A stretch of DNA of 24,743 bases from Pyrinomonadaceae bacterium (GCA_025929655.1 JAICPV010000001.1:1-24743); one strand, 5' to 3'. Counted from the stretch's first letter, positions 6,176-22,403 are shown. Notes: generated from the letters alone by a model not told the origin. Program-made: numbers and translations.

Positions 6176-6179
6176 CTGG

Positions 6180-6261
6180 AAACTGTTAACTATAAAACTG
6201 ATAACTGTTAGAAACTGTCGACCTAACAGTTATCGGTTTTCCGGTTTTTAGTTAGCAGTTT
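6180..6261. repeat. Imperfect palindrome built from roughly 7-nt AACTG(A/T)T units
   Basis: 6194-6211 pairs with 6223-6240 (17/18) and 6180-6192 pairs with 6249-6261 (12/13), with an 11-nt loop. Confidence 0.85.
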
Positions 6262-6297
6262 GCGCGTTCACCGCCGAAAATCGAATAATAGAAACCG

Positions 6298-7101
6298 ATG
6301 GAATTGGCGGTCGAAAAATTCAAGGTCGCGGACGAGCCCTTTTACCTGCCGATCGGCAGGGAAGTCGAGCTATTTGAGGCGGCGTACGCCGCGAAACTGC
6401 CCGCGATGCTCAAGGGCCCGACCGGTTGCGGCAAGACGCGCTTCGTCGAGCATATGGCGTGGCGGCTCGGCCGTCCGCTGATCACGGTGGCATGTCACGA
6501 AGATCTTTCATCGACCGATCTCGTCGGCCGATTCCTGCTCGAAGGCGAAGAAACTGTTTGGCACGACGGGCCGCTGACCTCTGCGGTTCGCGCCGGAGCG
6601 ATCTGTTATCTCGATGAGGTCGTCGAAGCGAGAAAAGATACCGTAGTTATCATCCATCCACTGACCGATGACAGACGGCGGCTGCCGATAGAAAAACGGG
6701 GAACGGTTCTCGATGCGCCGGACGATTTTATGCTCGTCGTGTCGTACAATCCCGGCTACCAGTCGATCCTCAAAGACTTGAAACAATCGACACGCCAACG
6801 GTTTGTCGCGATGGAGTTCGATTACCCCGAGCCGGAGGCGGAAACGCAGATCGTTGCGAAGGAAGGAGGCATCGACGAAGCCACCGCTGCCGATCTGGTA
6901 AAGATCGGGCAAAAGGTGCGCAACCTTCGCGGTCACGGCCTTGAAGAAGGAGTCTCGACACGCCTTCTTATTTACGCTGCCCAGATGATCGCGAAAGGGA
7001 TTTCACCCGTCGACGCTGCCGAGGTCGCGATCTGCTCCCCCATCACCGACGACCGCGATCTCCAGCGCAGCATCCGCGAGATCGTGACGACGATTATTTG
7101 A
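6298..7101 (+). CDS. CbbQ/NirQ/NorQ-family (MoxR-class) AAA+ ATPase
   Basis: Walker A GPTGCGKT, Walker [39 protein letters not shown]. No symbol is given because the client pathway is unknown. Confidence 0.9.
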
Positions 7102-7105
7102 CAAT

Positions 7106-7477
7106 ATGGAACCTGAACAGCAAAAAGTACTTTTCAAACCGGAACGCCATCTTTGCCAGGAAAGATGGAGATCATAGTTAGTCCCAGCGACGGTACACGG
7201 TTCCGCGTCGAATGCTCGACCGTTCTCGCCTTTACCTGCTTTCGACGAAAGCTGTGCTCCAATGCGCTCGTTCAGCACGGTCGAAACCGAACAAGCACGG
7301 ATCAGTGCGTATCCTTGCCTTGATTCTCCCTGGATCAAGTCATACGAAGGTTGCCAATATGACGCAGAGAGTAACCCCTTTCCGCTAAATCATTACCTGA
7401 TCTTCGGCGGCGACAATATCGTTGAGTTCCTCTGCCAAAACGAACCGGTTGTTTCGCAACTTCCCAATTGGAACTGA
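7106..7477 (+). pseudogene. Small hypothetical gene (about 123 aa) broken by two compensating 1-nt frameshifts
   Basis: MEPEQQKVLFKP (from 7106), shift at about 7140 to GTPSLPGKMEIIVSPSDGTRFRVECSTVLAFTCF, shift at about 7242 back to DESCAPMRSF...NHYLIFGGDNIVEFL...NWN*. The unshifted frame has TAG at 7175-7177. Confidence 0.6.
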
Positions 7478-7518
7478 TAAGTAAGCCACTGTGGCCACGC
7501 TAATTCGCTGAGCTACGC

Positions 7519-7557
7519 AAAAAGAAAAAAGGCGAAACCATTAACTGATCCGCCTTT
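7519..7557 (-). terminator. Rho-independent terminator of the M1-like/TPR gene
   Basis: On the minus strand, AAAGGCGGA...TTCGCCTTT stem (12-nt loop) is followed by a T-rich tract. Confidence 0.6.
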
Positions 7558-7576
7558 GAATGGTATCGAATTCAAA

Positions 7577-9661
7577 TCACCTGGTAGCGGTGGCGTCCTT
7601 CTCTTTAGGATCATACGGGGTGGCCTGGTATTTGCGAACGGCGGCCTGAGCGCCGTCGTAGTCGTCGTTTAGGTCAGCGGCTCGTTTGTACATCGCGATG
7701 GCACGCGTGCGGTCGCCTTTGGCGTCGTAGGCGTTGCCCATTTTGATGTTCGACCAGACCTGTAGCCATTGCGGGTTGATGTTCCCGCTCAAGGCAGCTT
7801 TGAAATTATCGATCGCCAGATCGTAATTTCGCTGCTCAAGGAATAACAGGCCCAGATGGTAGTAGATCCACGAATTCGAACGGTCGAGTTTCAAAGCAGC
7901 TTCGAACTGCGCCTGTGCGTCGGCGAAATTGCCTTCCTTCATCTGCTCGATGCCGCGGCGGGCAACCGACGAGACGCGAAGGTCCGGTGAAATTCGGAGC
8001 AGTTTGTATCCCGGATCGATCACAACATTCAGCGGCTTCCCGTCGGCTTCGATGTTGAAGTCGGCGGTGGCGTCTTCAACGCGAACCGCCTGGATCTTAG
8101 AGCCATTTTCGCCTTCGGACCGCAGCATTATGTCGAGCGGTAACTTCAAATTATCGTAATTCTGCTTCACCGTGCCGCGGGCGATGAACTTCCCGCCGCG
8201 CGTTCGAATTATCTGGTAATCGGCCGTAAACTCCGGCACGCCCGTGCTTTCGACCCAGCGGGCGAAAAAGTAACGCATGTTCTGACCTGCGAGGCGCGTA
8301 GCCAACTTTTCAAAATCGTCGATCGAGGCGTTCTTGCCGCGAAACTCGTTGAGGAAAGTGCGCAGAAGCTGGTTGAATTTCGCTTCACCGAGCGTATCGC
8401 GCAAAAGGCGATATACGGCCGGCCCTTTGCCGAACATGATGTACTGGTACGCTGCCGACTGGTCGTCAAGATTCGCCGGGGCGCGCAGAAGCGACGCGGT
8501 CTGCTCGAAGGTCAGTGCTTTTTCAAGCAGTTCGCGGCGTGCGAAATCCAGCTTCGCGCCGGTCAGCATCGTTTCGCGAAGTGCGAAAGCGCTGTACTCC
8601 GCAAGGCCCTGCGAAAGCCAAACATCGTCGAAAGATTTCAGCCCGACGGTCAACCCCCACCATTGATAAGCAGCTTCGCGCTGCAGCCTTTCGGCGGTCG
8701 CGTCGCGCGGCTGTTCGAACTGCCGGCTCGAGATGAAAAGCATCCCGTTCGAGGAATAGAAATCGAGGCTTTCGTCGTCGATCTGCGCGACCGTGAGGGT
8801 CTTGCCCATCGCCGGTGCCCCAAACGACTTGGTATAAAAATCCAACGCTTTCCCAAGCGTTTCCGCGAACGATTGCACGTTTGCGTCGAAGCCCGGCATT
8901 GTATTGAAGTTGATCGCGTACTCGCCGAATTTCAAATTCCGCGGAACGTACTTGCCGTATGCGAAATTGCCCACGAGCCCCGGTTTCGATTGGACGAACC
9001 GAGATTTACCGCCAGTCGGTGTCACCGGCGAATCGCTGTAGCCCGCGAACTGAAGGCCCGAAGGCAGCGAGATCGTGATATCGGAGGTCGCAAGATCGGC
9101 GGCGTAATTGTGGAACGGAAACCAGCGTGCGGCGTACATCAAATAGCCTTCTTCCGGGCCGATATACGCGAGCCTTTTGCTCAGCAGCGGACCGCCGCTG
9201 GGCGTATTCAGCACGCCAGAATATTTGAAAAGCAATGTCACGGTTGAACCCGCAGGAACCGTATCACCGAGGTCCACGCGAACGCTTGGCCCGAGGTCTG
9301 AAACTCCCACCTGGTCCTGAACGAAGGTCACATCACCGAGTTTCGGTGTTGCGACTGCCGGCGGCGTTGCGGTTTTTCCTTTTGCGGCCGCAGCCGCGAC
9401 GGGCGTCTTATCGGTCCTCGCGATGGAGTCGACCTTCAGCGAACCGTTTAGCTCAAAGGTCACGGAACGCGTTTCTTCCTGTGGCGTAAATGTCACCGCC
9501 GTTGAAGCCGTCAGTTTGTTCTCGATCGGGTTAAGCTGGGCGTCGATCAGGTACGAAGAAACGTCGAACGGCGTCCGTTTCACCTGCTGCGCCGAGCCGG
9601 CCGTGGCTAAAGCGGCCAAGACGATCGCGGCCGCAAAAAAACTGTTCAAAAATCGGTTCAT
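7577..9661 (-). CDS. Secreted M1-aminopeptidase-fold protein with C-terminal TPRs; Zn-binding motif degenerate
   Basis: Signal peptide. REAAYQWWG...WLSQGLAEY aligns to HExxHQWFG...WLNEGFATY. MFGKG aligns to YxKG. C-terminal helical repeats (AQAQFEAALKLD..WIYYHLG, AIDNFKAAL, MGNAYDAKGD) are TPR-like. Confidence 0.85.
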   Translation of the reverse strand: MNRFLNSFFAAAIVLAALATAGSAQQVKRTPFDVSSYLIDAQLNPIENKLTASTAVTFTPQEETRSVTFELNGSLKVDSIARTDKTPVAAAAAKGKTATPPAVATPKLGDVTFVQDQVGVSDLGPSVRVDLGDTVPAGSTVTLLFKYSGVLNTPSGGPLLSKRLAYIGPEEGYLMYAARWFPFHNYAADLATSDITISLPSGLQFAGYSDSPVTPTGGKSRFVQSKPGLVGNFAYGKYVPRNLKFGEYAINFNTMPGFDANVQSFAETLGKALDFYTKSFGAPAMGKTLTVAQIDDESLDFYSSNGMLFISSRQFEQPRDATAERLQREAAYQWWGLTVGLKSFDDVWLSQGLAEYSAFALRETMLTGAKLDFARRELLEKALTFEQTASLLRAPANLDDQSAAYQYIMFGKGPAVYRLLRDTLGEAKFNQLLRTFLNEFRGKNASIDDFEKLATRLAGQNMRYFFARWVESTGVPEFTADYQIIRTRGGKFIARGTVKQNYDNLKLPLDIMLRSEGENGSKIQAVRVEDATADFNIEADGKPLNVVIDPGYKLLRISPDLRVSSVARRGIEQMKEGNFADAQAQFEAALKLDRSNSWIYYHLGLLFLEQRNYDLAIDNFKAALSGNINPQWLQVWSNIKMGNAYDAKGDRTRAIAMYKRAADLNDDYDGAQAAVRKYQATPYDPKEKDATATR

Positions 9662-9825
9662 TATTAAGGATCCCTTTAATATTGCGTGCCTTTCTATGAT
9701 GTTTATGCCTGTTAAATCGTTTGCCGCTCCAAACCTATAAGAACCTGGTCGCGTTATGACAGGGCCTTTTGCTTTTGACCGCCTATCTCTCTATATTAGA
9801 CCGAATCTCGCGGCAACTCTATCTC

Positions 9826-11319
9826 GTGGCGAACGAAGCGAAAAGCAACATTTCCAAAGGAAAGATCTGGCAGGTCATCGGCGCCTCATCCGTCGGTACG
9901 ATGATCGAATGGTACGATTTTTATATATTCGGCAGCCTTGCTCCGGTCATCGCCCCGCTTTTCTATCCTCCCGAAGACCAAACATTCGCCTACATCGCGT
10001 ATCTCGCGACATTTGCGGTCGGATTTGTGGTCCGCCCGTTCGGCGCTCTTTTCTTCGGACGGATCGGCGACATCGTGGGCCGAAAATACGCGTTTCTCGT
10101 TACGCTTCTCATCATGGGCGGAGCGACCGCCCTGATCGGTTTCCTTCCGACCTATGCTCAAATCGGTATTGCGGCACCTATCGCGTTGCTGGTCATACGT
10201 ATTCTTCAGGGCCTCGCGCTTGGGGGTGAATACGGCGGGGCGGCGGTTTATGTCGCCGAGCACGTACCGGACAAGCGGCGCGGGTTTTACACCTCCTTTA
10301 TTCAGATAACGGCCACGTTAGGCCTGTTTCTTTCGCTCGCGGTGATCCTGATCATTCAGAACCTGATGTCGCCGGACCAGTTCGCCGGAAGAGCAGAGGG
10401 TTTGAGCGGCTGGCGGATACCGTTTCTCATCTCGATCGTCCTTGTCGGCATTTCGCTTTACATTCGCCTGCGTATGAAGGAATCGCCGATCTTCGAGCAC
10501 ATAAAATCAGGAGGAATGACGTCGGCAAACCCTCTGGTCGAGGCGTTTACGAAATGGGCGAACTTGAAACGCGTTTTGATCTCTCTGTTCGGCGCGACCG
10601 CCGGGCAAGGCGTCGTATGGTACACCGGCCAGTTTTACGCGCTCTTTTACCTGCAATCGATCCTTAACGTGAATGCAACGTCGGCGAATTACATCGTCGC
10701 GATCGCTTTGCTTTTGGGGATGCCGTTCTTCGTCGTTTTCGGTGCTCTCAGTGACCGCGTGGGGCGTAAATGGATAATTCTCGCAGGCTGTCTGCTCGCG
10801 TTGGTCTCCTATTTGCCGATATACAAAGCGATGCAAGCCGCTGCCGGATCCAACGTGGTCACCGCCACGTCCCAGACGAATTTGTCGACCGGGGCGATCT
10901 CGTTAACGCCGCAATCGGTTGATCGGTACGGTGAATTGGTCGCAGCGCCGAAAGTACTGCCGTATTCGTCGTTCGGCGAGCTGGTATCAGATCGTTCGGC
11001 GCAGTTGCTTATCTTGCTCGTTTTCGTTCAGGTGATCTGGGTCACGATGGTGTACGGCCCGATCGCAGCTTATTTGGTCGAGGCCTTCCCTGCCAGAATT
11101 CGCTACACCGCTCTTTCGCTGCCCTACCACATCGGTAACGGCGTCTTCGGCGGCCTTTTGCCCGTGATAGGCCTATCGGTGGTCGCGTCCACCGGAAATA
11201 TCTACGCCGGGCTTTATTACCCGATGATCGTAGCGGCGATTACATTCATCGTCGGCGCCGTGTTCCTTAAGGAAACCCACGGGCATCGGATCTGGGAGGA
11301 GGTAGCTAACAGAAATTAG
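9826..11319 (+). CDS. MFS transporter, metabolite:H+ symporter (MHS) family
   Basis: GTMIEWYDFYIFG, VRPFGALFFGRIGDIVGRK, GGEYGGA, ESP, SDRVGRK motifs. The start is uncertain: GTG 9826 is preferred over the track's 9769. Confidence 0.88.
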   Translation: MANEAKSNISKGKIWQVIGASSVGTMIEWYDFYIFGSLAPVIAPLFYPPEDQTFAYIAYLATFAVGFVVRPFGALFFGRIGDIVGRKYAFLVTLLIMGGATALIGFLPTYAQIGIAAPIALLVIRILQGLALGGEYGGAAVYVAEHVPDKRRGFYTSFIQITATLGLFLSLAVILIIQNLMSPDQFAGRAEGLSGWRIPFLISIVLVGISLYIRLRMKESPIFEHIKSGGMTSANPLVEAFTKWANLKRVLISLFGATAGQGVVWYTGQFYALFYLQSILNVNATSANYIVAIALLLGMPFFVVFGALSDRVGRKWIILAGCLLALVSYLPIYKAMQAAAGSNVVTATSQTNLSTGAISLTPQSVDRYGELVAAPKVLPYSSFGELVSDRSAQLLILLVFVQVIWVTMVYGPIAAYLVEAFPARIRYTALSLPYHIGNGVFGGLLPVIGLSVVASTGNIYAGLYYPMIVAAITFIVGAVFLKETHGHRIWEEVANRN

Positions 11320-11354
11320 ATCTTTTTTGAGCCTTCCTTTACAACCTCTTCATC

Positions 11355-11572
11355 CTTTGCGTTCTTTGCGTCTTTGCGTGAAACCAATTTCTTGATAACC
11401 ATGACCGAAAATCAAATCGCAACTGTGATTAACGACTTGACCTATCCGATTAACAAACCTAAAGCTCGGATTGTTAGTTAATTTCGAAGTTGATCTTATA
11501 AAGGATGGGATAAAACGAGTTGTGAGTGGGTTGTGAGGAAATGCTTCACGCAAAGTCGCAAAGGCCGCAAAG
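11355..11572. repeat. Inverted-repeat cassette with 3xCTTTGCG arms enclosing a GxxExxY gene remnant
   Basis: Left arm 11355-11382 CTTTGCGTTCTTTGCGTCTTTGCGTGAA. Right arm 11545-11572 TTCACGCAAAGTCGCAAAGGCCGCAAAG. The arms are 25/28 complementary. Confidence 0.9.
11401..11536 (+). pseudogene. Internally deleted, frameshifted GxxExxY (PD-(D/E)xK nuclease-like) gene remnant
   Basis: ATG 11401 gives MTENQIATVI (family-typical N-terminus), then ND-LTY, a frameshift at 11446, and RLTNLKLGLLVNFEVDLIKDGIKRVVSGL* (11447-11536, family-typical C-terminus). The GxxExxY motif itself lies in the missing middle. Family recognised from memory, not by search. Confidence 0.8.
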
Positions 11573-11605
11573 AAAAACTTAAGCCACAGGTATTACATTT
11601 CACAA

Positions 11606-12057
11606 TTACAAATGTGGACTGAGCCTCTGCAGGATCGCCTCTCTCGATTGCACACCCACGATGCGGTCGACCTCGCGGCCGTCTTGTAGGATCAGCAAAG
11701 TAGGAATACTTTGAACCTGGAAACGCGCGGCCGTGCGTGGGTTTGCGTCCACGTCGAGTTTGCCGACGAGCACTTTCCCTGCGAGTTCGGAGGCGAGAAT
11801 TTCGACCGTCGGTGCGATCATCCGACACGGCCCGCACCATGCCGCCCATAGGTCGAGAAGAACAGGCAGTGCGATCTTTCAACAAGGGAATTGAAATTTG
11901 CATCAGTAACAATGACAGGGTCGGACGACGGTGCCGGAAGGGGATTCCTGCATTTTCCGCAAACAGGCCGCTGTTTGAGCGCTGCGTCGAACCTGACGCG
12001 GTTTTTCGCTCCACAGTTCTGGCAAGCAACGATCAAACTTTTTGCCGGCGCGGCCAT
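11606..12057 (-). pseudogene. trxC: Thioredoxin 2 (zinc-finger thioredoxin) split by a 1-nt deletion at about 11871
   Basis: N-terminal CQNC...CGKC zinc finger. Restoring one C in TCG C(C)A CTG gives [24 protein letters not shown], joining track ORFs 11818-12057 and 11606-11821 with an intact WCGPC site. May be a sequencing error. Confidence 0.88.
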
Positions 12058-12069
12058 AGGTTCATTCTT

Positions 12070-13575
12070 TCACGGGGTTTGCGCGTTTTCGTTCACTACC
12101 TGACGAAGCCGTTCATTCAAAAGGTCCCAAACTTTCTTTAAATGCCTTTCCTGGACGCGGATGCTGCCGACGGAAAGGCGGAGTGTGAACTTGCCGTTGA
12201 GTTTTGTGTGGGAAAGATATGCTTCGCCTGATGCGTTGATGGCGTTCATCAACTTATCGTTAAGCTCGTCGATGTCCGGAAGTGAAGACAACCCGGTCGC
12301 TACCGCTCCCGGTTCTGACAGGATCGGGTTCGCCCGGAAACAAACGAGGGAAAACGGCACGGGTGCCATTAGTTCGAAATCTTTTGCGGCTTCAATCCAA
12401 GATGCAAAAATTTGTGCGAGGCGGCAATGTTCTCGTATTCGAGCCTCCAGTCCATCGCGGCCGAAATACCGCATCACGAACCAGAGCTTCAGCGCGCGGA
12501 AACGGCGGCCGAGCTGGATACCGTAATCCATCCCGTTTTTCACGGCGCCTTCGTCGCTTGTTTTTAGATATTCGGGAACGAGCGAAAATGCTTTTTTTAA
12601 TTCATCGAGATCGCGGCAATAAAGCACAGACAAATCGAATGGCGTGAAGAGCCATTTGTGCGGATTTACGACTATAGAGTCCGCACGCTCCCAGCCTTCG
12701 AACAAATCTCTCTTTTCCGGGAGCATAGCAGCCGGCCCGGCGTATGCTGCGTCCACGTGCAGCCAAATGCCATTTTTTTCACAAATATCCGCGACCGCCT
12801 CGACCGGATCTACGCTGGAGCTCGATGTGGTCCCAATGGTCGGGATCACACAAATTGGAACGACTCCATTCTCGATGTCTTCCTCGATCGCGTTGGTGAG
12901 CTTTTCCGGAATCATCTCGAACCGCTCATTGCATTCGATCTTTCGCAAAGAACGCGTGCCGAGGCCGAGGGTTATACATGATTTGTCGATCGACGAATGA
13001 ACGTGTTCGGAGCTGTAAACCCGCAGCAGAGGGAGATCGTTACGGCCGCTCATACCTTTTTCGCGAACTTCCAGGTTTGCTCTTTCGCGCGCCGCGGCGA
13101 TCGCGTGCATGGTCGAAACGGAAGCAGTGTCGTAGATGATCCCCTCAAAGAGCTCGGGAAGTCCGAGCACCTTTCGCAGCCAATCGAGTGTTACGTCTTC
13201 CAACTCGGTCGAGGCGGGCGATGTTCTCCAGAGCATCGCCTTCATATCGAACGCTGCCGCGAACATTTCGCCGAATACGCCGACGGACGACGCAGAAGTG
13301 GAAAACAAGCCGTGAAAATTCGGATGATTCCAATGTGTCACTGCGGGGAGGACAAGTTCATCGAAATCACCTAAAACCTCTTCGAAATCCTCGCCGGATT
13401 CAGGTGCGGACGCCGGTAAAGCCTCTCTCAGCGAACCCGGCTCGATCTGCGACAGCACCGGAAATTGTTCGATTTGGTCAAAATATTCTGCGATGCGGTC
13501 GACGACAGCGTAGCCGTATTTGCGAAACTCGTCCGCCGGCATGTCGCCGAGAGGGTTTTTGCCTTCACTTTTCAT
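12070..13575 (-). CDS. Group II PLP-dependent decarboxylase, aromatic-L-amino-acid decarboxylase-like
   Basis: HWNHP, SPASTELE, HVDAAYAG, PLP-lysine motif NPHKW, loop PEYL, GRRFRALKLW. ATG 13575 has GAGG 6 nt upstream. Confidence 0.88.
   Translation of the reverse strand: MKSEGKNPLGDMPADEFRKYGYAVVDRIAEYFDQIEQFPVLSQIEPGSLREALPASAPESGEDFEEVLGDFDELVLPAVTHWNHPNFHGLFSTSASSVGVFGEMFAAAFDMKAMLWRTSPASTELEDVTLDWLRKVLGLPELFEGIIYDTASVSTMHAIAAARERANLEVREKGMSGRNDLPLLRVYSSEHVHSSIDKSCITLGLGTRSLRKIECNERFEMIPEKLTNAIEEDIENGVVPICVIPTIGTTSSSSVDPVEAVADICEKNGIWLHVDAAYAGPAAMLPEKRDLFEGWERADSIVVNPHKWLFTPFDLSVLYCRDLDELKKAFSLVPEYLKTSDEGAVKNGMDYGIQLGRRFRALKLWFVMRYFGRDGLEARIREHCRLAQIFASWIEAAKDFELMAPVPFSLVCFRANPILSEPGAVATGLSSLPDIDELNDKLMNAINASGEAYLSHTKLNGKFTLRLSVGSIRVQERHLKKVWDLLNERLRQVVNENAQTP
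12289..12330. repeat. REP-like hairpin inserted in-frame in the decarboxylase gene
   Basis: AACCCGGTC (12290-12298) pairs with GATCGGGTT (12322-12330), 9 bp with one G-T, around GCTACCGCTCCCGGTTCTGACAG. The 42 bp encode NPILSEPGAVATGL. Confidence 0.55.
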
Positions 13576-13620
13576 CTGAACCTCAACGCCCGCTTTGTCC
13601 AAATAGTACCCGATAACCGC

Positions 13621-13648
13621 TCGACATGCCCATCGAATCAGGTATAAT
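13621..13648 (+). promoter_or_regulatory. Sigma70-type promoter of the liv operon
   Basis: TCGACA (13621-13626), 16-nt spacer, TATAAT (13643-13648). Confidence 0.7.
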
Positions 13649-13736
13649 GCGTGTTTGCGCGAATCTTAAACCCAATGTCTGTTGCAAACGTAATTTCGTT
13701 TGGTCGATACAAATTCAAAACACTTGCGAGGTAATT

Positions 13737-15038: not shown

Positions 15039-15044
15039 GAAGTA

Positions 15045-15087
15045 GGAATTGGGCCCGGGGATCTATGTGATCTCCAGGTCCAATTCC
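15045..15087 (+). other. Stable stem-loop between livK and livH (probable mRNA-stabilising or partial-termination hairpin)
   Basis: 19-bp stem 15045-15063 / 15069-15087 with 2 G-U and 1 mismatch, loop TATGT, and no U-tract. Such hairpins commonly follow binding-protein genes in ABC operons. Confidence 0.65.
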
Positions 15088-15125
15088 CCCGAATAGGCTT
15101 TTCGTTCCGGCGAGCTTCCGCCTCT

Positions 15126-16043
15126 ATGGATACTTTCGTTCAGCAGCTAATTAACGGACTCACCATCGGGTCGATCTATGCGTTGATCGCGCTCGGATAC
15201 ACGATGGTTTACGGTATCCTGCGGCTGATCAACTTCGCCCATGGCGACATATACATGCTGGGCGCGTACGCCGGCTTCATAATCGCCACCTCGATGGGTT
15301 TTGCTGCGAATCCGTCGGCGATCGGCTTCGCTGTCACCCTTGTAGGTTCAATGGCAATAGCGGCCGCGGTTGGCATGGCCATTGAACGATTTGCGTATCG
15401 CCCCGTAAGAAAATATTCGAAGATGACGACGCTGATCACCGCGATCGGTATGTCGCTTTTCATCGAATATCTTTTCGTTTTTATCTTCTCCGGAACTCCG
15501 CGTTCGTTCCCTCAGCTGCTGCCTAACGAGAACATCACGCTCTTCGGTAACGCCACGATCTCTACCTCGCAGATCCTGATCTTTGTCGTGTCGATGCTGC
15601 TGATGTTCCTGCTGCAGTGGATCATTTACAAAACTAAGATCGGCAAGGCGATGCGGGCCGTCTCATTCAATCTGAACTCGGCGAAATTGATGGGCATCAA
15701 CACGAATTTCGTGATCGCCTTCACTTTTGCTCTCGGTTCGGCTTTGGCGGCCGCGGGCGGCGTCCTTACCGCACAATATAATCCGAAGATAGAGCCGCTG
15801 ATGGGCATCATGACGGGGCTGAAGGCTTTTGTTGCGGCGGTTTTGGGGGGGATCGGAAACATCCCGGGAGCAGTGCTCGGTGGACTGCTGATCGGGGCCG
15901 CGGAGACTTTGGTCGTGGGATATGGCGGTTATATCGGCGTGCCATCGACGTTCAGGGACGCGGTCGCGTTTGCGATCCTGATCCTCGTTCTGCTTTTGAG
16001 GCCCGCCGGGCTTTTGGGTTCGAACGTTCAAGAAAAAGTTTGA
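15126..16043 (+). CDS. livH: Branched-chain amino acid ABC permease
   Basis: QQLINGLTIGSIYALIALGYTMVYGILRLINFAHG, KIGKAMRAVS, GLKAFVAAVLGGIG. Confidence 0.93.
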   Translation: MDTFVQQLINGLTIGSIYALIALGYTMVYGILRLINFAHGDIYMLGAYAGFIIATSMGFAANPSAIGFAVTLVGSMAIAAAVGMAIERFAYRPVRKYSKMTTLITAIGMSLFIEYLFVFIFSGTPRSFPQLLPNENITLFGNATISTSQILIFVVSMLLMFLLQWIIYKTKIGKAMRAVSFNLNSAKLMGINTNFVIAFTFALGSALAAAGGVLTAQYNPKIEPLMGIMTGLKAFVAAVLGGIGNIPGAVLGGLLIGAAETLVVGYGGYIGVPSTFRDAVAFAILILVLLLRPAGLLGSNVQEKV

Positions 16044-16047
16044 CGAT

Positions 16048-17097
16048 ATGTCTTGGTTAAAGAACATCGGTGCCGTGGTTGCCATCTTTGCCGTTCTTTA
16101 TGTGCTGAACGCGATGATGAGCAGCGCGGGCTTTTTCGGAACCGGGATAAACGATTATCAGAGCCGGTTGCTGGTGTTCATCGCTATCAACATCATCCTC
16201 GCTACGTCGCTCAACCTGATCAACGGCTTCACCGGCCAGTTCTCGATCGGCCACGCGGGCTTCATGGCGATCGGAGCTTACGCGTCGGCTTACTTTTCAA
16301 ATGTTTACGGCGAATCGATCGTAAGGTCGTTTTCTTTTCTCGGCGAAACAGCTGCGGTAAGCGTTGTTCTCCTGATCGCGATAATCGTCGGGGCGTTGGT
16401 CGCCGCTTTGATGGGCCTTATCGTCGGCATTCCGAGTCTGAGGCTCAAAGGTGACTATCTCGCGATCGTAACGCTCGGTTTCGCCGAGATCATCCGCATC
16501 GTGATCTTGAACATCGACGCGGTAGGCGGTGCGACCGGATACTCGGTGCCCGGATACGCAAACTTTTTCTGGATCGGCTTGTTCGCGATCGTCACGATCG
16601 TCGTCATCAACAATATCGTCAATTCCGATTCCGGCCGAGCTCTGGTTTCGATCCGCGAGGACGAGCTCGCTGCAGAGGCGATGGGCGTGAACACGACACG
16701 ATACAAGGTTACGGCATTCGTGATCGGTTCCGCCTTTGCGGGTATCGCGGGCGTCCTCTTCGCTCACAACAACAAGTTTCTTCATACTAACGACTTCCAG
16801 TTCATCAAATCGTTCGAGATCATCATCATGATCGTGATCGGCGGGATGGGTTCGATCACCGGCGCGATCCTCGGCGCGATCATCGTGACGCTGCTGCCCG
16901 AGCTTCTACGCATGCTGCCGGACGTAACTCTGGGCGGCTTCACCGTTAGGTTCGCGGACCTCCGGCTGGTGATCTTCGCGTTGATACTGATCGTAACCAT
17001 GATCGTCAGGCCGCAGGGCCTATTGGGTACGATGGAAATTGGCCATATTTTCAAGCGTTTTCGCCGTGCCGATAAGCCGACCGGAGGTATGAAATAA
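16048..17097 (+). CDS. livM: Branched-chain amino acid ABC permease
   Basis: LNLINGFTGQFSIGHAGF, LRLKGDYLAIVTLGF, GRALVSIREDELAAEAMGVN. Confidence 0.93.
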   Translation: MSWLKNIGAVVAIFAVLYVLNAMMSSAGFFGTGINDYQSRLLVFIAINIILATSLNLINGFTGQFSIGHAGFMAIGAYASAYFSNVYGESIVRSFSFLGETAAVSVVLLIAIIVGALVAALMGLIVGIPSLRLKGDYLAIVTLGFAEIIRIVILNIDAVGGATGYSVPGYANFFWIGLFAIVTIVVINNIVNSDSGRALVSIREDELAAEAMGVNTTRYKVTAFVIGSAFAGIAGVLFAHNNKFLHTNDFQFIKSFEIIIMIVIGGMGSITGAILGAIIVTLLPELLRMLPDVTLGGFTVRFADLRLVIFALILIVTMIVRPQGLLGTMEIGHIFKRFRRADKPTGGMK

Positions 17098-17873
17098 TGG
17101 CGGCCACGAACGGAAACCAGGTACTGCGGACGCAAAACGCGACCATTCGCTTCGGCGGCCTCGTCGCGGTCAACGAGCTGGATATGGACGTCCGGCAGGG
17201 CGAGATCTACGGCCTGATCGGGCCGAACGGGGCGGGGAAAACGACGATCTTCAACCTCCTCACCGGTGTCTACGAACCCACGTCCGGCGATATCAATATT
17301 TTGGGAACGCGCGTCAACGGCCTGCGTCCTTATCAGATCTCGCGGCTCGGCGTTTCCCGAACTTTCCAGAACATCCGCCTTTTTCCGAGCATGACGGTTC
17401 TGGAAAACGTTGTGACCGCCTGTCACCGCCACGCAAAACAATCGATGGCGGATGCCGTTTTCCGCCTACCGCGCTATTTCAAGGACGAACAGGAACATCG
17501 CGATTTCGCTCTAGAGCTGTTGAGCATTTTCGAGCTGGAAAAATACAAGAACGAAGGCGGAACTTCTCTCCCGTATGGGAACCAGAGGCGGCTGGAGATC
17601 GTTCGTGCCCTGGCGACGCGCCCGCAGCTTCTTTTGCTCGACGAACCCGCCGCGGGGATGAACCCGTCGGAGCAGGAAGACCTGACCGCTCTGATCAAAG
17701 AGGTTCGCGACAAATTCAACCTGACGATCATCCTTGTCGAACACAACATGCGCGTCGTGATGGGCGTCTGCGACCGCATCCAGGTGGTCGACTACGGCAA
17801 ATCGATCGCGCTCGGACTGCCGCAGGAGATCAAGAGCGATCCGAAGGTGATCGAAGCGTATTTGGGAGATTAG
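17097..17873 (+). CDS. livG: Branched-chain amino acid ABC ATP-binding protein
   Basis: FGGLVAV, GPNGAGKTT, RTFQNIRLF, LPYGNQRRLEI, LLLDEPAAG, VIEAYLG. Confidence 0.93.
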   Translation: MAATNGNQVLRTQNATIRFGGLVAVNELDMDVRQGEIYGLIGPNGAGKTTIFNLLTGVYEPTSGDINILGTRVNGLRPYQISRLGVSRTFQNIRLFPSMTVLENVVTACHRHAKQSMADAVFRLPRYFKDEQEHRDFALELLSIFELEKYKNEGGTSLPYGNQRRLEIVRALATRPQLLLLDEPAAGMNPSEQEDLTALIKEVRDKFNLTIILVEHNMRVVMGVCDRIQVVDYGKSIALGLPQEIKSDPKVIEAYLGD

Positions 17874-17936
17874 TTCGTGGTTCGTTGATCGTTGTTCGTT
17901 GCATTCATCACGATCAACCAACAACCAACAACGAAC
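17873..17936. repeat. Heptad-unit palindrome filling the livG-livF gap
   Basis: Left arm TTCGTGG TTCGTTG ATCGTTG TTCGTTG. Right arm CACGATCAACCAACAACCAACAACGAAC. The arms are 22/27 complementary. Confidence 0.85.
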
Positions 17937-17942
17937 GTATTT

Positions 17943-18647
17943 ATGTTAACGCTCGATAATGTTTCCGTCAGCTATGGCGCGATCGAAGCTCTGACCGGCA
18001 TAAATTTGCACGTTGAGAAGGGCGAGGTCGTTACGCTGATCGGCGCAAACGGCGCGGGGAAAACGACCACGCTTAGGACCATCACGGGGTTGCTCGATCC
18101 GATTGCCGGCCGTGTCGTTTACGAGGGGAACGAGATCCAAGGCGTTCCGACGCACAAGCTGGTTTCGAGGGGAATCGCGATGTCGCCCGAGGGCCGCGGC
18201 GTTTTTGCGAACCTTAGCGTCCGTGAAAATCTTGAGATGGGCGCGTATATCCGCAAGGACAAAAAAGCTATCGCAAGCGACATGGAACGCGGTTTCGAGC
18301 TTTTCCCGCGGCTCAAAGAACGCGAAGCGCAAAAGGCGGGAACACTGTCTGGAGGCGAACAGCAGATGCTTGCGATGGCACGCGCGCTGATGTCGAAACC
18401 GCGGCTCCTCTTGCTTGACGAACCTTCGCTCGGGCTAGCCCCTCTCGTCGTTCACACGATATTCGAAGCGATCGAGCGGATCCGCCAGGAGGGTGCGACT
18501 ATCCTGTTGGTCGAGCAGAACGCGAATGCCGCACTGCACCACTCCGACCGCGCGTATGTGCTGGAAACGGGCCGGATCGTGATGGAAGGCGATTCAAAAC
18601 AGCTCGCGCAGGACCCGAGAGTTAAGGAAGCATACCTCGGCGAGTAA
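17943..18647 (+). CDS. livF: Branched-chain amino acid ABC ATP-binding protein
   Basis: Start at ATG 17943 (MLTLDNV). GANGAGKTT, PEGRGVF, LSGGEQQMLA, LDEPSLGLAP, VKEAYLG. Confidence 0.93.
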   Translation: MLTLDNVSVSYGAIEALTGINLHVEKGEVVTLIGANGAGKTTTLRTITGLLDPIAGRVVYEGNEIQGVPTHKLVSRGIAMSPEGRGVFANLSVRENLEMGAYIRKDKKAIASDMERGFELFPRLKEREAQKAGTLSGGEQQMLAMARALMSKPRLLLLDEPSLGLAPLVVHTIFEAIERIRQEGATILLVEQNANAALHHSDRAYVLETGRIVMEGDSKQLAQDPRVKEAYLGE

Positions 18648-18674
18648 GCCGTTTAGATTTTTTTGGCTTTCACG

Positions 18675-18705
18675 AGCGGAGGGTTTCGATACCTTCCGCT
18701 TTTTT
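18675..18705 (+). terminator. Rho-independent terminator of the liv operon
   Basis: AGCGGAGGGT-ttcgat-ACCTTCCGCT 10-bp stem (one G-U) followed by a T run ending at 18705. Confidence 0.8.
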
Positions 18706-18708
18706 CAT

Positions 18709-20127
18709 ATGGCGAATCGCGACAGAAAAAACTGGTGGCGTTGGCTGGCGGTCGTTGGATGTCTCGTCGGAGTATATGCATTGGTTCCCGAGACGGCCGC
18801 CCCGATCGAACACCGGGCGCTTCTGGCGATCTTTATTGCTACGATCGTTGGTTCCATCGTTCAGCCGCTGACGGGAGCGGCGATGGTGCTGCTCGGGGTC
18901 GTGGCTCTCGCGCTGTTTCGCGTTGTCCCGATCGAAAAGGCGCTAAGCGGTTACGCGGATAAATACGTCTGGCTGGTTCTCGCCGCGTTCTTTATCTCAC
19001 GCGCGATGATAAAAACCGGGCTCGGTCACCGCATTGCATTGATCTTCGTACGGCTGATCGGCCGCAAGACTCTGGGGCTCGGATATTCGCTGGTTTTCAC
19101 CGATTTCATTCTCGCGTCCTTCATCCCGTCAACCGGTGCGCGTTCGGGCGGCATAATCCTGCCTATCGCACGGAGCATTACGGAAACGTACGATTCGCGA
19201 CCGGAAGACGGTACCGAAGGGCGGCTCGGCACATTTCTGATGTCGATGCTTTACCAGAGCGAAGTAATTTTGTGTGCGACATTCCTCACGGGCCAGGCGT
19301 CGAATGTGATCATCGCCGGATTCGCGCGGCAGCACGCGGGCATCGATCTTAATTATTCGATCTGGTTCGTTTCCGCGATCGTTCCAGCGCTTGTTTCGCT
19401 AATTGTGATCCCGCTGATGATCTACCGGCTGTTTCCGCCGGAGGTCAAGGAGACGCCGCACGCCGTCACGTTCGCTCACGCAGAGCTGGAAAAACTCGGC
19501 CCGCCGTCCAGGCACGAAAGGCTTTTACTGGCAGTTTTCATTTGTGTTGTAGCCCTCTGGATAACCGCAAGGCTGCATGGCATAGACGCGACGGTGATCG
19601 CGCTCGTCGGCATCTCCGCACTGCTCGTTTCCGGCGTGCTTGAGTGGCGCGACCTGATCGACGAAACGCACGCTTGGGAAGTTTTCATCTGGTACGGCGG
19701 CCTCGTGATGATGGCAACTGCTCTGGGGGAGACAGAACTGCCGAAACTTTTCGCGGGCGGGGTAGCGTCATTGACGGGCGGAATGTCGTGGCCGGTCGCC
19801 CTCGCGATCCTCGCACTCGTTTTCTTTTACGCGCATTACGCGTTCGCCTCGATCACCGCGCACGTTACAGCGATGTTCATTCCTTTTCTGGCGGTTACGG
19901 TCGCGGTCGGCGCACCGGCCGGATTGACCGTATTAGTTCTGACTTATTTCGCCAATCTTAGCGCGGGCCTGACGCACTATGGCACGACACCCGCCCCGGT
20001 CTATTTCGGATTAGGTTATGTAACACAAAAACGGTGGTGGACGATCGGGCTGATCGCCTCGATACTGAATATCGTGATCTGGTCTCTCATCGGACCCGTA
20101 TGGTGGAAAGTTTTGGGTTGGTGGTAA
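18709..20127 (+). CDS. DASS-family (CitT/2-oxoglutarate-malate translocator-like) anion transporter
   Basis: AFFISRAMIKTGLGHRIAL, IPSTGARSGG, FLTGQASN, YAFASITAH, LTHYGTTPAP, WWKVLGWW. Confidence 0.9.
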   Translation: MANRDRKNWWRWLAVVGCLVGVYALVPETAAPIEHRALLAIFIATIVGSIVQPLTGAAMVLLGVVALALFRVVPIEKALSGYADKYVWLVLAAFFISRAMIKTGLGHRIALIFVRLIGRKTLGLGYSLVFTDFILASFIPSTGARSGGIILPIARSITETYDSRPEDGTEGRLGTFLMSMLYQSEVILCATFLTGQASNVIIAGFARQHAGIDLNYSIWFVSAIVPALVSLIVIPLMIYRLFPPEVKETPHAVTFAHAELEKLGPPSRHERLLLAVFICVVALWITARLHGIDATVIALVGISALLVSGVLEWRDLIDETHAWEVFIWYGGLVMMATALGETELPKLFAGGVASLTGGMSWPVALAILALVFFYAHYAFASITAHVTAMFIPFLAVTVAVGAPAGLTVLVLTYFANLSAGLTHYGTTPAPVYFGLGYVTQKRWWTIGLIASILNIVIWSLIGPVWWKVLGWW

Positions 20128-20149
20128 ATGCGATTGGAGGTGAATAAGT

Positions 20150-20218
20150 CACAGATCAACACGGATACACACGGATTAGGACCAATACTTATCTGTGTAG
20201 ATCTGTGTTCATCTGTGG
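20150..20218. repeat. 10-nt-unit palindrome between convergent DASS and ppiD-like genes
   Basis: CACAGAT CAACACGGAT ACACACGGAT, a 14-nt loop, then ATCTGTGTAG ATCTGTGTTC ATCTGTG. Confidence 0.88.
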
Positions 20219-20242
20219 CTCAAAATACTCTTTCTTCGCCGT

Positions 20243-22234
20243 TTATTGATCCAGGAGCCCGCTAAAGGGGTCAGCCGGAGTTGTCCCTTCATCGAGTTTC
20301 GCGATCACGTCGTTGTAGATCTTGATCTTGCCGTCTGCTTCCATCTTTTGACGTGTCGACGCGAGATACTCGCTGTAGACCTCGCCGCGTCTCTGACTCA
20401 ACATTTGCTCCATCAGCGTGTCGCGCGCCTTAGCGAATTCGGCCATATTCGCGTCCTCGCGTTTCGTCATCCCCACGATCATCCAATTGTCGCCGACCTT
20501 GATAGGTGTTCTCGTGACATCGCCTTCCTTCATTGCGTAGATCGCGTCCTCTAGCTGGTCGTTGGTTGTCGCGGTCGGCCCTTCGCCGAGCGGTGAGCCG
20601 AGTATGAATGCTTTCGAATCCTTTGCGGTTAACCCCTTTGAGGCTGCCGCCGCACCCAAACCACCGGCATCAGTAGCACCCGACGCGATCCCCTTTGCTA
20701 TCTCTTCGACCTGCGCCTGCGCCTTTTGAATTTTCACAAGTTCGGTAACCTGTGCTTTTACTTCTTCAAAATCCGCGTCGCGCGGGCCTTTTTGGTCGAC
20801 GAGCATCGGAATGGCGAAGCCGTCGGGGATCGGCGTTTTATCGCCGACGTCGTTCACGTTTTGGAGGGGAGCGATACCTTCCTCGAATTGCGGCGAATTA
20901 CCGATCTTGTCTACGGTGTCGCCGGGTTTGATATATGCGGTTTCGCGGACCATCTCGGCAACGTTCATGTTCGCCTGCGCGGCATATTCCTGGGCGGTCT
21001 TCTGGACGTCCTTTGATTGCTTCAGCGAGTCGACAACCTTCTGCGCCAATTCCGCCGCAGCGCCATACGCGCGGCGATTTCGCAAAGAAACCTCGATCTC
21101 CTTCTTCGCGTCCTCGAATGTCTTGGGCACGTCCTCGCCGCGGCGAAGCACGAAATAGCGGCCCTGATAATTGATCGGCTCGGTGATCTCGCCCGGCTGC
21201 ATCGTAAGAAGCTGCTGATACGGGTCGTCCTTTTTAGCTTGGTTCTCGCGGACCACTCCCGGGATCTTTCCGCCGGTTTGCGCTGTCGCAGGATTTTCGG
21301 ACTGCCCCTTTGCGGCTTCCGCAAAAGCTTCCTCGGTAACCGACGTCCCGTTTTGCCGCAGCCTCGCTACAAGTTCTGTCGCCTTTTGCAGGACCTGGGC
21401 TTCCTGATCAGGCTTCGGGATGCGGAAGACGATCTCTTGCCCGTTTACGCCGGCCTTTTTTCGTTCGAGCGGAAGCGCGTCGTATTCGGCACGTAGGTCG
21501 GCTTCCGGAATATTCAGCTTTTCGCCGATCTTCGAAGTGTTAACGAAAACGTAGCGGATCTTTTTCTGAGGCACGTCGATGCGGTAGCTTGCTTTGTTCT
21601 GCTCGTAATACGCTCGCAGCTCATCGTCGGTCGGCGTGATCGATTTGGCGAGGTCCGTCGCGTTGACGGTCACATACGAGAGATCGAATTTGCTGTTTTT
21701 CCGCTGATACTCTTTGAGAACTTCTTCTTCAGAAACCGTAACGCCCGACGTGATGAACGCACGCAGCTTGTTCGCGCTGAGGTCGTCACGCACGCTTTCC
21801 TCAAACGCCTTGATGTTGCCGAAACGCTCGACGATGCTCTGCTCGTACCGCTTCTGGTCGAAGGGTTTGCCGTCTTCCGGCTTGAACTGTTCGCGGATCG
21901 CGGCCGCGACCTCGGCGTCCGATGCCGTCAGGCCGAGCCGATTAGCCTCGACACGCGAGATCTTGCTGCCGATCATCCCGTTGATGATCATCTTCGCCGG
22001 GTACGGCCGTCCCTGCATAAACTGGCTGAATTGCTCACGCTGCCGCTCGATGTCGCCCACGGTGATCACTTCGCCCGAGACGGTGGCGGCGGTTTCCGAG
22101 CTGTTCACCGGATTTACGTTTAGATCGCCGCGCGTCGGGGCGTAGAAAAACACCAAGCTGCCGACCATCAGCACGGCAAACACCAGAAGAACGAAGTTGC
22201 GTGTCCTTTCGAGACGGGTGATAAACTTTAACAT
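20243..22234 (-). CDS. ppiD: PpiD/SurA-like periplasmic chaperone (N-terminal TM anchor, SurA_N domain, parvulin-like domain)
   Basis: Single N-terminal TM helix, GLTASDAEV, VTVSEEEV, and parvulin-like FAEAAKGQSENPATAQTGGKI...PGEITEPI. 663 aa. Confidence 0.75.
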   Translation of the reverse strand: MLKFITRLERTRNFVLLVFAVLMVGSLVFFYAPTRGDLNVNPVNSSETAATVSGEVITVGDIERQREQFSQFMQGRPYPAKMIINGMIGSKISRVEANRLGLTASDAEVAAAIREQFKPEDGKPFDQKRYEQSIVERFGNIKAFEESVRDDLSANKLRAFITSGVTVSEEEVLKEYQRKNSKFDLSYVTVNATDLAKSITPTDDELRAYYEQNKASYRIDVPQKKIRYVFVNTSKIGEKLNIPEADLRAEYDALPLERKKAGVNGQEIVFRIPKPDQEAQVLQKATELVARLRQNGTSVTEEAFAEAAKGQSENPATAQTGGKIPGVVRENQAKKDDPYQQLLTMQPGEITEPINYQGRYFVLRRGEDVPKTFEDAKKEIEVSLRNRRAYGAAAELAQKVVDSLKQSKDVQKTAQEYAAQANMNVAEMVRETAYIKPGDTVDKIGNSPQFEEGIAPLQNVNDVGDKTPIPDGFAIPMLVDQKGPRDADFEEVKAQVTELVKIQKAQAQVEEIAKGIASGATDAGGLGAAAASKGLTAKDSKAFILGSPLGEGPTATTNDQLEDAIYAMKEGDVTRTPIKVGDNWMIVGMTKREDANMAEFAKARDTLMEQMLSQRRGEVYSEYLASTRQKMEADGKIKIYNDVIAKLDEGTTPADPFSGLLDQ

Positions 22235-22335
22235 CAGTTACCTTTTATTAATTGCGGGTTAACGGCCTTTTGGGGCAAACTGTGATTTTAACAAAAACCC
22301 GATTGTATTCAAACGAAACGCCGTATTATTGACCT

Positions 22336-22403
22336 CTTTGCCATCCTGGCGTCTTTGCATGAAAAAAAGCTTTGTTTCACGCCAAGCCGCAAAGAACGCA
22401 AAG
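22336..22403. repeat. Empty copy of the CTTTGCG-arm palindrome
   Basis: Arms 22336-22364 and 22375-22403 are 22/29 complementary, with a 10-nt loop. The reverse complement of the right arm matches 11355-11383 at 27/29. Confidence 0.88.

Follow-up and report, generated by a model that had tools for sequence, protein, structure and literature searches.

The 24,743-nt sequence analysed here (hereafter the window) is the complete contig C107 of a Pyrinomonadaceae metagenome-assembled genome (G000; 600 contigs, 2.95 Mb, 54% G+C, about 90% complete), and it contains five hairpins whose arms are inverted arrays of short tandem words. We propose, with a probability of roughly 0.6, that these hairpins are promoterless selfish cassettes together with their gene-less or internally deleted derivatives, and that a small protein recognises the word arrays of its own family at both ends. 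The proposal draws on direct observation of the cassette architecture, the association of arms with genes, the congruence of word and protein clade, a deletion intermediate, the changing occupancy of orthologous sites, occurrence in many phyla, orientation, and placement relative to stop codons.

A full cassette measures about 450 to 550 bp and consists of three to five copies of a 6-7-nt word repeated every 7 to 10 nt, a gene of about 125 codons, and an inverted array of the same word. The cargo is either a GxxExxY protein (TIGR04256/PF13366) or a four-helix-bundle protein (TIGR02436/PF05635). All four GxxExxY genes of this genome lie exactly between word-array arms, and so do all of its four-helix-bundle genes with both flanks assembled; other four-helix-bundle fragments lie at contig ends, beside a single arm, which fits a tendency of assemblies to break at these repeats. 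Across the genus (30 sister genomes), about 22 to 24 of 30 loci per gene family are armed, and the arms abut the start and stop codons. The distance between arm and codon is typically 0 to 20 nt, which leaves no room for a promoter. An earlier reading, made from the sequence alone, had stated that heptad repeats often flank four-helix-bundle genes, and this is what we see both for the fully flanked genes of this genome and for the armed loci of the genus.

Five hairpins of one design

The sequence-only reading had described five palindromes sharing one design. All of them can be read in the sequence at the positions it gave, with arms of three to five tandem units at 7-10-nt spacing in inverted orientation, and the units, which differ between elements, had been named correctly:

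Element 1, arms 6174-6211 and 6223-6260, + strand: gene-less hairpin, about five AACTGNN units, 11-nt loop
Element 2, arms 11355-11382 and 11545-11572, + strand: internally deleted GxxExxY cassette, three CTTTGCG plus TGAA facing TTCA plus three CGCAAAG, 162-nt interior
Element 3, arms 17873-17901 and 17910-17936, + strand: gene-less hairpin, GTTCGTT and AACGAAC words
Element 4, arms 20148-20176 and 20190-20219, + strand: gene-less hairpin, CACRGAT words at 10-nt spacing
Element 5, arms 22336-22364 and 22375-22403, + strand: decayed gene-less hairpin, CTTTGC(G) array of the CTTTGCG/CGCAAAG family, the weakest of the five

All five are placed between protein genes, and scans of the window for Rfam families (rRNA included) and for tRNAs gave no match. 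Element 1 starts on the stop codon of phoX (6173-6175), and the following cbbQ/norQ-like gene starts at 6298. Element 3 fills the 69-nt intercistronic gap between livG (stop 17871-17873) and livF (ATG 17943). Element 4, whose arms read CACAGAT-CAA-CACGGAT-ACA-CACGGAT on one side and three times ATCTGTG with a terminal CTGTGG on the other, occupies the convergent gap between a Na/sulfate symporter gene (stop 20125-20127) and ppiD (stop 20243-20245). Element 5 is found between the divergent genes ppiD and nadK, with its end 15 nt short of the nadK ATG (22419).

The elements have a fold pattern in common: base pairs form between the repeated words, and the intervening spacers of 1-2 nt are left as internal loops. 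Compared with shuffled sequences, the predicted RNA folds are strong for element 1 (dG -41.1, z -6.3 on the + strand), element 2 (z -6.9) and element 4 (dG -39.9, z -7.8), moderately better than shuffles for element 3 (z -2.8 on the + strand, -3.9 on the - strand), and weak for element 5 (z -1.0 and -2.8, respectively). A U-tract is absent from all five, and none was called an intrinsic terminator, the one match (6232-6245) being a sub-stem within an arm of element 1; the earlier claim that terminator function alone does not explain the elements is thereby upheld. A canonical intrinsic terminator (11-bp stem followed by a T-run) stands at 18674-18701, between livF and the symporter gene, so that this genome uses ordinary terminators beside word-array hairpins.

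Contigs of the same species assembled from other samples (99.4-99.6% identity) hold element 3 in identical form in nine cases, and element 1 with one substitution in one of four, which excludes an assembly error. Two such contigs (L095 and L096) end at window position 20147, where element 4 begins; these independent breaks fit a multi-copy repeat that fragments short-read assemblies.

Judged by their words, elements 2, 4 and 5 are of the GxxExxY type and element 3 is of the four-helix-bundle type. The word of element 4 is that of GxxExxY clade A2, and element 5 has 38 6-mers in common with a GxxExxY cassette on contig C348. Element 3 has 36 in common with the four-helix-bundle cassette at G000:C30:684-1142, where the 99th percentile of the null is 26. 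Element 1 falls below the word-match threshold in the comparison with cargo cassettes and is only loosely assigned: it resembles arms found next to a four-helix-bundle fragment, its arm and that of the fragment on C115 having the 8-mer GATAACTG in common, and similar words occur on C102 and C359.

Element 2 is the palindrome in which a nuclease-family remnant had been noticed. Its interior indeed keeps both ends of a GxxExxY gene, recognised by a profile match and by alignment with the intact cassette G000:C348:5437-6040:

11401-11481, + strand: remnant open reading frame (ORF) of 26 codons, the first ten or so of which (MTENQIATVI) encode the N-terminus of a GxxExxY protein of class C
11444-11536, + strand, another frame: C-terminal 30 or so codons of the GxxExxY gene, ending ...LGLLVNFEVDLIKDGIKRVVSGL

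The N-terminus is nearly identical to that of the C348 protein (MTENQIATII), and hmmsearch, run with a GxxExxY profile built in this analysis, aligns the last 28 residues with positions 99-126 of the 127 in the profile (27.4 bits, E 6e-9). The middle 85 or so codons, D-E-K catalytic residues included, are deleted, and the gene is therefore a pseudogene. Relative to the C348 cassette, identity is 88.6% in the left arm, 90.3% in the right arm, 90.5% at the start of the gene (first 21 coding bases) and 76.6% at its 3' end (46 bases). Element 2 is a deletion intermediate, and shows one route from gene-bearing to gene-less copies.

Around the C348 cassette (G000:C348:5371-6040), CTTTGCG/CGCAAAG arrays follow one another as a'-a-[GxxExxY gene]-a'-a-a', so that the cassette has additional gene-less hairpins on either side; this mosaic recalls the clusters formed by bacterial interspersed mosaic elements (BIMEs).

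Words, arms and cargo proteins

Genome-wide, we searched for chains of 6-mers (at most one mismatch, spacing of 6-11 nt, at least three units) that face an inverted array no more than 900 nt away. The 2.95-Mb assembly contains 78 such pairs and a second-order Markov copy of it none, which excludes chance; the figure of 78 is a minimum, as the decayed elements 1 and 5 escape the detector. Pairing based on the program TRF and an ungapped-autocorrelation detector had been dropped, as they missed most of the window elements because unit spacing varies, and so had single-linkage clustering of arms by common 6-mers, in which everything fell into one cluster. Loop lengths are bimodal, with about 65 loops of at most 75 nt and about nine of 349-551 nt; the single loop of 167 nt is that of element 2. 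The long-loop class corresponds to the small genes.

More than 12 different words coexist in this genome, each tied to a different GxxExxY or four-helix-bundle clade. Among the gene-less hairpins, 27 of 67 carry the word of a cargo cassette at a level above the 99th percentile of a random-word null, where about 0.7 would be expected, and these 27 are split evenly between the two cargo types. Together with the genes found between arms, this gives substance to the earlier suggestion that the non-autonomous elements fall into several parallel families, each possibly linked to a gene for a small protein.

Do words and proteins evolve together? When armed cassettes (48, from 31 genomes) were each paired with the cassette of another genome whose arms resemble theirs most, the two agreed in cargo type in 43 of 47 cases, against a mean of 23 under permutation. 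On the protein trees, words belong to single clades almost without exception. In the genus, the GxxExxY tree has one word per clade (CACAGAG, CACRGAT, CGCNGAG, CGCAAAG and CACGAAA), and the clades of the four-helix-bundle tree carry GAGTTRC, GAAGTCY, AATCGTN, GTGAAAA, GTTGTCR, GTTCCWR and CAGCART. Label changes number 7 on the former tree (12.6 when labels are shuffled), 10 on the latter (minimum 9; 18.5 shuffled), and 14 on a cross-phylum tree of 65 GxxExxY proteins (32.5 shuffled); none of 200 shuffles was as low in any of the three, although the trees and arm comparisons take in related sequences, so that kin are not independent, labels are common to relatives, and the agreement does not by itself test co-evolution. 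That the word follows the tree of the cargo protein in both gene families is a new finding of this analysis, and so are the behaviour of arms as arrays of one word and the orientation and placement of the cargo genes described below. Words persist while the proteins differ by 20 to 50%, and the intergenic DNA between the same species is otherwise unalignable, which indicates selection on the word.

Among 47 armed GxxExxY loci from many phyla, 46 have words of the form C-R-S-N-R-A-R, and 30 keep a cap, [A/C]ACC[A/G]C...G[C/T]GGT[G/T], for which 0.11 would be expected. The two arms have an identity of 0.80 when aligned in register, of 0.77 after a shift by one unit, and of 0.26 out of phase; cargo cassettes alone give 0.76, 0.66 and 0.33. 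The spacers between words do not pair, and mismatches compatible with G-U pairing show no excess on the sense strand (67, against 60 on the antisense strand). What is conserved is the word, in two inverted arrays, rather than a particular stem or a stem selected only in the sense RNA.

Two peculiarities of GxxExxY cassettes may be mentioned. At three loci of the CACRGAT clade (L062, L050 and L058), the start codon is formed by the final word (CACAGATG), and an N-terminal extension, MDTDK..., is encoded by more word-like repeats, so that the array runs into the coding sequence. Furthermore, the polarity of the gene relative to its arrays is reversed in some GxxExxY clades, the cap being turned towards the gene and not outwards (L055, L059, L139 and G000:C348 versus L043 and L185; L053, L056 and L057); this is what recombination between inverted arms would produce.

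Eight residues are invariant across 18 GxxExxY sequences (G32, G34, E37, Y40, E47, D77, E87 and K89) and make up a PD-(D/E)xK signature, which points to a nuclease under selection. The AlphaFold model is confident (pLDDT, the predicted local distance difference test, 93), and its best structural matches are all of the restriction-endonuclease fold (BpuSI, Cas4, CinB, BglII and Hjc; Z 6-7.7). As only this generic PD-(D/E)xK fold is matched, with Z below 8, no specific nuclease subfamily can be named; a sequence search of solved structures gave no match, and PADLOC found only a faint similarity to Cas4. The four-helix-bundle protein matches the pentameric structure of XCC0516 (2GSC). Its family is that of the protein encoded in rRNA intervening sequences (IVSs), and is homologous to Avd of diversity-generating retroelements (PMC10053308). 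Neither cargo family is a known transposase family.

Placement, turnover and competing explanations

Cassettes lie in sense orientation immediately behind the stop codon of a host gene. By simple ORF calls, the cargo gene and the host gene upstream of it have the same orientation in 28 of 30 resolved cases, and between two co-directional genes the cargo lies 20 times in sense and never in antisense; transcription and replication direction are inseparable in this respect, the assembly being fragmented. Of 23 gene-less copies, 20 have the polarity towards the host gene that is usual in their gene-bearing family. In this genome, they begin a median of 5 nt after the stop codon, the start-side median being 13 nt, and their gaps are co-directional in 32 cases, convergent in 9 and divergent in 1. 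The sequence-only reading was right that the window offers co-directional, convergent, divergent and intra-operon settings; genome-wide, divergent gaps are rare (this 1 among 42 resolved contexts).

The five sites of the window were compared with sister species of the same genus, in which gene identity is about 70 to 80% at the DNA level:

Site 1, phoX-cbbQ gap: empty in G004, where it measures 27 nt; filled by an ordinary G+C-rich terminator in G024 and by a hairpin of the CACGGAT type in G020
Site 2, gap of element 2: no cassette in G004 or G014
Site 3, livG-livF gap: occupied in every lineage that has this operon, with a different word in each (CAACCGA in G004:C243; CAACTTC in G004:C105; ATTTGCG, a member of another family, in G031)
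Site 4, symporter-ppiD gap: GGTAAAA-type hairpin in G014; single arm plus terminator in G020; plain terminators in G024 and G004
Site 5, ppiD-nadK gap: empty in G004, G014, G020 and G024

At site 3, the gap of G004:C105 also gives a weak match to the four-helix-bundle profile (E 0.047), a remnant that is suggestive only. In two Chloracidobacterium-like genomes with two replicons, a DNA methyltransferase gene of about 1.1 kb lies between livG and livF (L015, G035:C1:653117-654254; L016, G039:C1:489708-490904), at the exact spot where Pyrinomonadaceae have word-array hairpins.

Elements also recur at unrelated places. The 72-nt element 4 has copies 85% identical, loop included, at two unrelated, non-orthologous loci of G014. 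Cassettes of the same clade mostly have only about 400 to 540 nt in common, with unrelated flanks on both sides, and some are retained at orthologous loci across species. Genomes of the genus carry 0 to 12 GxxExxY and 0 to 13 four-helix-bundle copies (E <= 1e-25), and relatives of one GxxExxY protein at 50-82% identity are found in Alphaproteobacteria, Betaproteobacteria, Planctomycetota, Nitrospirota, Bacteroidota, Desantisbacteria and others; PF13366 has already been noted for 'multiple transfers' (PMC3424549). The elements are thus multi-copy, unfixed and associated with two gene families, rather than low-copy, fixed at orthologous sites and unconnected with any gene.

The main rival explanation holds that the hairpins are RNA-level elements, either RNase III sites or 3'-end stabilisers, comparable to REP sequences or to the intervening sequence of rRNA, kept by the host, and that the small genes are passengers. 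It accounts well for hairpins found directly after stop codons and in intercistronic gaps with hardly a divergent case, for their strong folds, and for a polarity biased relative to host transcription. At two of the window sites, an ordinary terminator occupies the same place in other species, and in Coxiella RNase III cuts an IVS stem, built from three GACAGAT heptamers, at its first repeat (PMC4990558). However, an RNA function fits poorly with the lack of a sense-strand excess of G-U-compatible mismatches, with the lack of a U-tract, and with arms that match as well when shifted by one unit while their spacers stay unpaired, since it is the word and not the pairing that is conserved. Generic RNA structure would not need a word that tracks the cargo clade, and the absence of elements from orthologous sites in sister species argues against a host function tied to the site. 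We therefore judge this explanation unlikely, though it deserves to be kept in mind.

Could the structures be made in place, by slippage and template switching between arms, with no transfer between sites? The four different words found in the livG-livF gap of four lineages could reflect fast local evolution, and heptamer number varies between Coxiella strains. Against this stand the copies of element 4 at non-orthologous loci of another species, loop included, the cassettes of one clade between unrelated flanks, and the stability of the hairpins at strain level; moreover, template switching would make the spacers complementary, and they are not. An origin in place is, in our view, very improbable.

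We also give little credit to the idea that the elements are repeats of the repetitive extragenic palindrome (REP) type, moved by a Y1 transposase encoded elsewhere in the genome, either of the IS200 type or a REP-associated tyrosine transposase (RAYT). REPs are likewise intergenic palindromes at gene 3' ends without clear target duplication, and the genome does contain nine matches to the Y1 family (PF01797, IS200/RAYT-like; on C81, C386, C46, C392 and other contigs), of which three are full length. None of the nine is flanked by or adjacent to word-array arms, the only nearby pair lying 600 nt from the gene on C46, and the many words of this genome are tied to GxxExxY or four-helix-bundle clades instead. 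The RAYT analogy drawn by the sequence-only reading does not extend, therefore, to the partner gene.

Apart from the elements, the window holds ordinary housekeeping genes, and close relatives of its proteins carry Pyrinomonadaceae titles (Acidobacteriota, Blastocatellia):

Window genes, first part: topoisomerase tail, methyltransferase, outer-membrane protein, M28 peptidase, phoX, cbbQ/norQ-like ATPase, M1-peptidase/tetratricopeptide-repeat protein, major facilitator superfamily transporter
Window genes, second part: split thioredoxin-2 gene, pyridoxal-phosphate decarboxylase, livKHMGF transporter
Window genes, third part: Na/sulfate symporter, ppiD, nadK, AraC regulator, RibD-C protein

The thioredoxin-2-type gene, which adjoins the degraded cassette of element 2, is read in two frames (11606-12057, - strand; zinc-ribbon ORF 11818-12057, thioredoxin ORF 11606-11821) with an in-frame TGA directly before the WCGPC motif, and is either a frameshift pseudogene or the product of an assembly error.

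A possible mechanism and known systems

If the hairpins are selfish cassettes, the following scheme can be considered. Cassettes would lodge directly behind host stop codons, where the cargo would be transcribed by read-through from the host gene, producing an RNA that carries both arms. The small protein might then bind the array of its own word, much as transposases recognise their ends and Rep proteins their iterons, and might spread or maintain cassettes in cis and gene-less copies in trans. Gene-less copies would arise by internal deletion and persist thereafter, perhaps served in trans by the matching protein. As for the chemistry of movement, the nuclease might trigger repair or copying into matching arrays, arrays might recombine with one another, or a host enzyme might do the work.

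Several points weigh against the cassette proposal. To our knowledge, a PD-(D/E)xK nuclease alone cannot join strands, and we know of no catalytic activity of the four-helix-bundle protein. No match to a reverse transcriptase (PF00078) was found in this approximately 90%-complete genome, so that a retro route of the Avd kind would be without a visible enzyme. Many four-helix-bundle copies of this genome are broken. One cassette design used by two unrelated proteins fits shared host or structure-specific machinery equally well. The agreement between word and tree is also expected from simple co-inheritance of a linked module, and the word groups behind it were defined first by eye and later through regular expressions written with knowledge of the arms; the context statistics, for their part, rest on crude ORF calls. 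The ends inspected show no consistent target-site duplication and no sharply defined limit, the empty sites of sister species being too diverged for base-by-base alignment; in one alphaproteobacterial lineage, homology extends 30-45 nt past the arms, and the identical pair L112/L113 belongs to a larger duplicated segment that is uninformative on ends. The comparison with sister genomes advocated by the sequence-only reading has therefore yielded the empty sites (sites 1, 2 and 5) and none of the target duplications. Finally, the strain-level contigs from several samples (99.4-99.6% identity) show no difference in presence or absence, and no movement event was caught; the earlier caution that the window does not demonstrate mobility still applies. 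Given this stability within the species and the differences between species, turnover is real but slow.

More tentatively, we suggest that the cassettes may form a distinct, phylum-spanning class of mobile elements, in which a protein of about 125 residues, be it a GxxExxY protein of the PD-(D/E)xK nuclease fold or an Avd-like four-helix bundle, reads an array of 6-7-nt words, and in which word and protein co-diversify into many orthogonal pairs per genome; rRNA IVSs, the class 1-3 sites of Geobacter, and perhaps the short tandemly repeated repetitive (STRR) sequences of cyanobacteria might be footprints of this class. Palindromes of tandem heptamers have been reported for decades without explanation (rRNA IVSs, Geobacter sites, possibly STRR), and one cassette architecture may unite them. 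It would also give a testable function, the reading of their own word arrays, to PF13366 and PF05635/TIGR02436, very common small 'hypothetical' families with no known role outside diversity-generating retroelements. If this is true, one word per clade and many clades per genome would amount to a natural set of very small orthogonal recognition modules. On a practical level, the elements affect annotation and assembly, as they occupy the space between cistrons, begin at stop codons and cause assemblies to break. Those within the liv operon and immediately before nadK may influence the expression of neighbouring genes. The class is widespread and barely described. Full-text literature searches returned no paper linking GxxExxY/PF13366 genes to such repeats.

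Among described systems, the STRR sequences of cyanobacteria, reportedly presented by Mazel et al. in 1990, are said to be tandem heptanucleotide repeats dispersed in intergenic DNA, with several families per genome; by analogy, a link to GxxExxY or four-helix-bundle genes might exist there, but this is only a lead.

A closer resemblance is found in Geobacter metallireducens, whose class 1-3 sites consist of three to five tandem 7-9-nt repeats (GTTGCTYN, TCTCCGTS[Y] and MTYCTGA), paired on opposite strands at variable distance, of which each genome has tens of copies (Aklujkar et al. 2009, PMC2700814). Read on the opposite strand, the class 2 word TCTCCGTS becomes the GxxExxY word CACGGAGA that we found in Alphaproteobacteria, Planctomycetota and Geobacteraceae. 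The Geobacter sites, which we compare by their published description, have been interpreted as regulator sites, with no GxxExxY or four-helix-bundle link reported (PMC2700814), and the window elements could likewise be taken for binding sites of host global regulators, all the more since their paired short-word arrays are often near gene starts (start-side median above). Yet such sites would hardly be so poorly conserved at orthologous positions, lie mainly after stop codons and not in promoter gaps, comprise so many words per genome, or enclose genes of their own; with the class 2 word itself matching that of a cargo family, a regulatory origin seems to us a poor candidate.

Like miniature inverted-repeat transposable elements (MITEs), the gene-less hairpins are short non-autonomous copies that have kept the inverted ends of their parent, arise by internal deletion (element 2) and outnumber the parents. 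Unlike MITEs, they have a parent without a recognised transposase, ends made of word arrays, and no target-site duplication that we could find.

With the REP/BIME-RAYT systems of Enterobacteria and Pseudomonas, the elements have in common that they are multi-copy, imperfect intergenic palindromes at gene 3' ends and between cistrons, that there are several families per genome, that mosaic clusters in alternating orientation occur (C348), and that a dedicated small protein gene is flanked by inverted repeats. The partner proteins here, in contrast, are not Y1 transposases, and the arms are arrays of three to five short words, whereas a REP is a single palindrome of 20-40 nt; no 5' tetranucleotide of the GTAG type was seen in our arms.

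The closest described object, on present analogies, is the ORF-bearing IVS of 23S rRNA. In Coxiella burnetii, the IVS of helix 45 is a 428-nt insert with a 28-bp terminal stem made of three tandem GACAGAT heptamers, and a promoterless S23p (PF05635) ORF begins right after the repeats; it was regarded by its authors as a selfish element of unknown origin (PMC4990558). ORF-bearing 23S rRNA IVSs encoding S23p are also known from Leptospira, Brucella and Xanthomonas. The resemblance lies in the long terminal inverted-repeat stem with tandem heptamers, and GACAGAT is one base away from the CACAGAT of the window. As to excision by RNase III, the lack of G-U strand bias in our elements neither shows nor excludes it, and gives no pointer to selection on RNA only. 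No PF05635 ORF lies inside the window elements; PF05635 genes elsewhere in the genome and in the genus are enclosed by such arms. The elements described here differ from the IVSs in that they are found not in a helix of 23S rRNA (9, 25 or 45) but after the stop codons of protein genes, in that they are mostly gene-less, and in that one design also serves a second cargo unrelated to the first, the nuclease-like GxxExxY protein.

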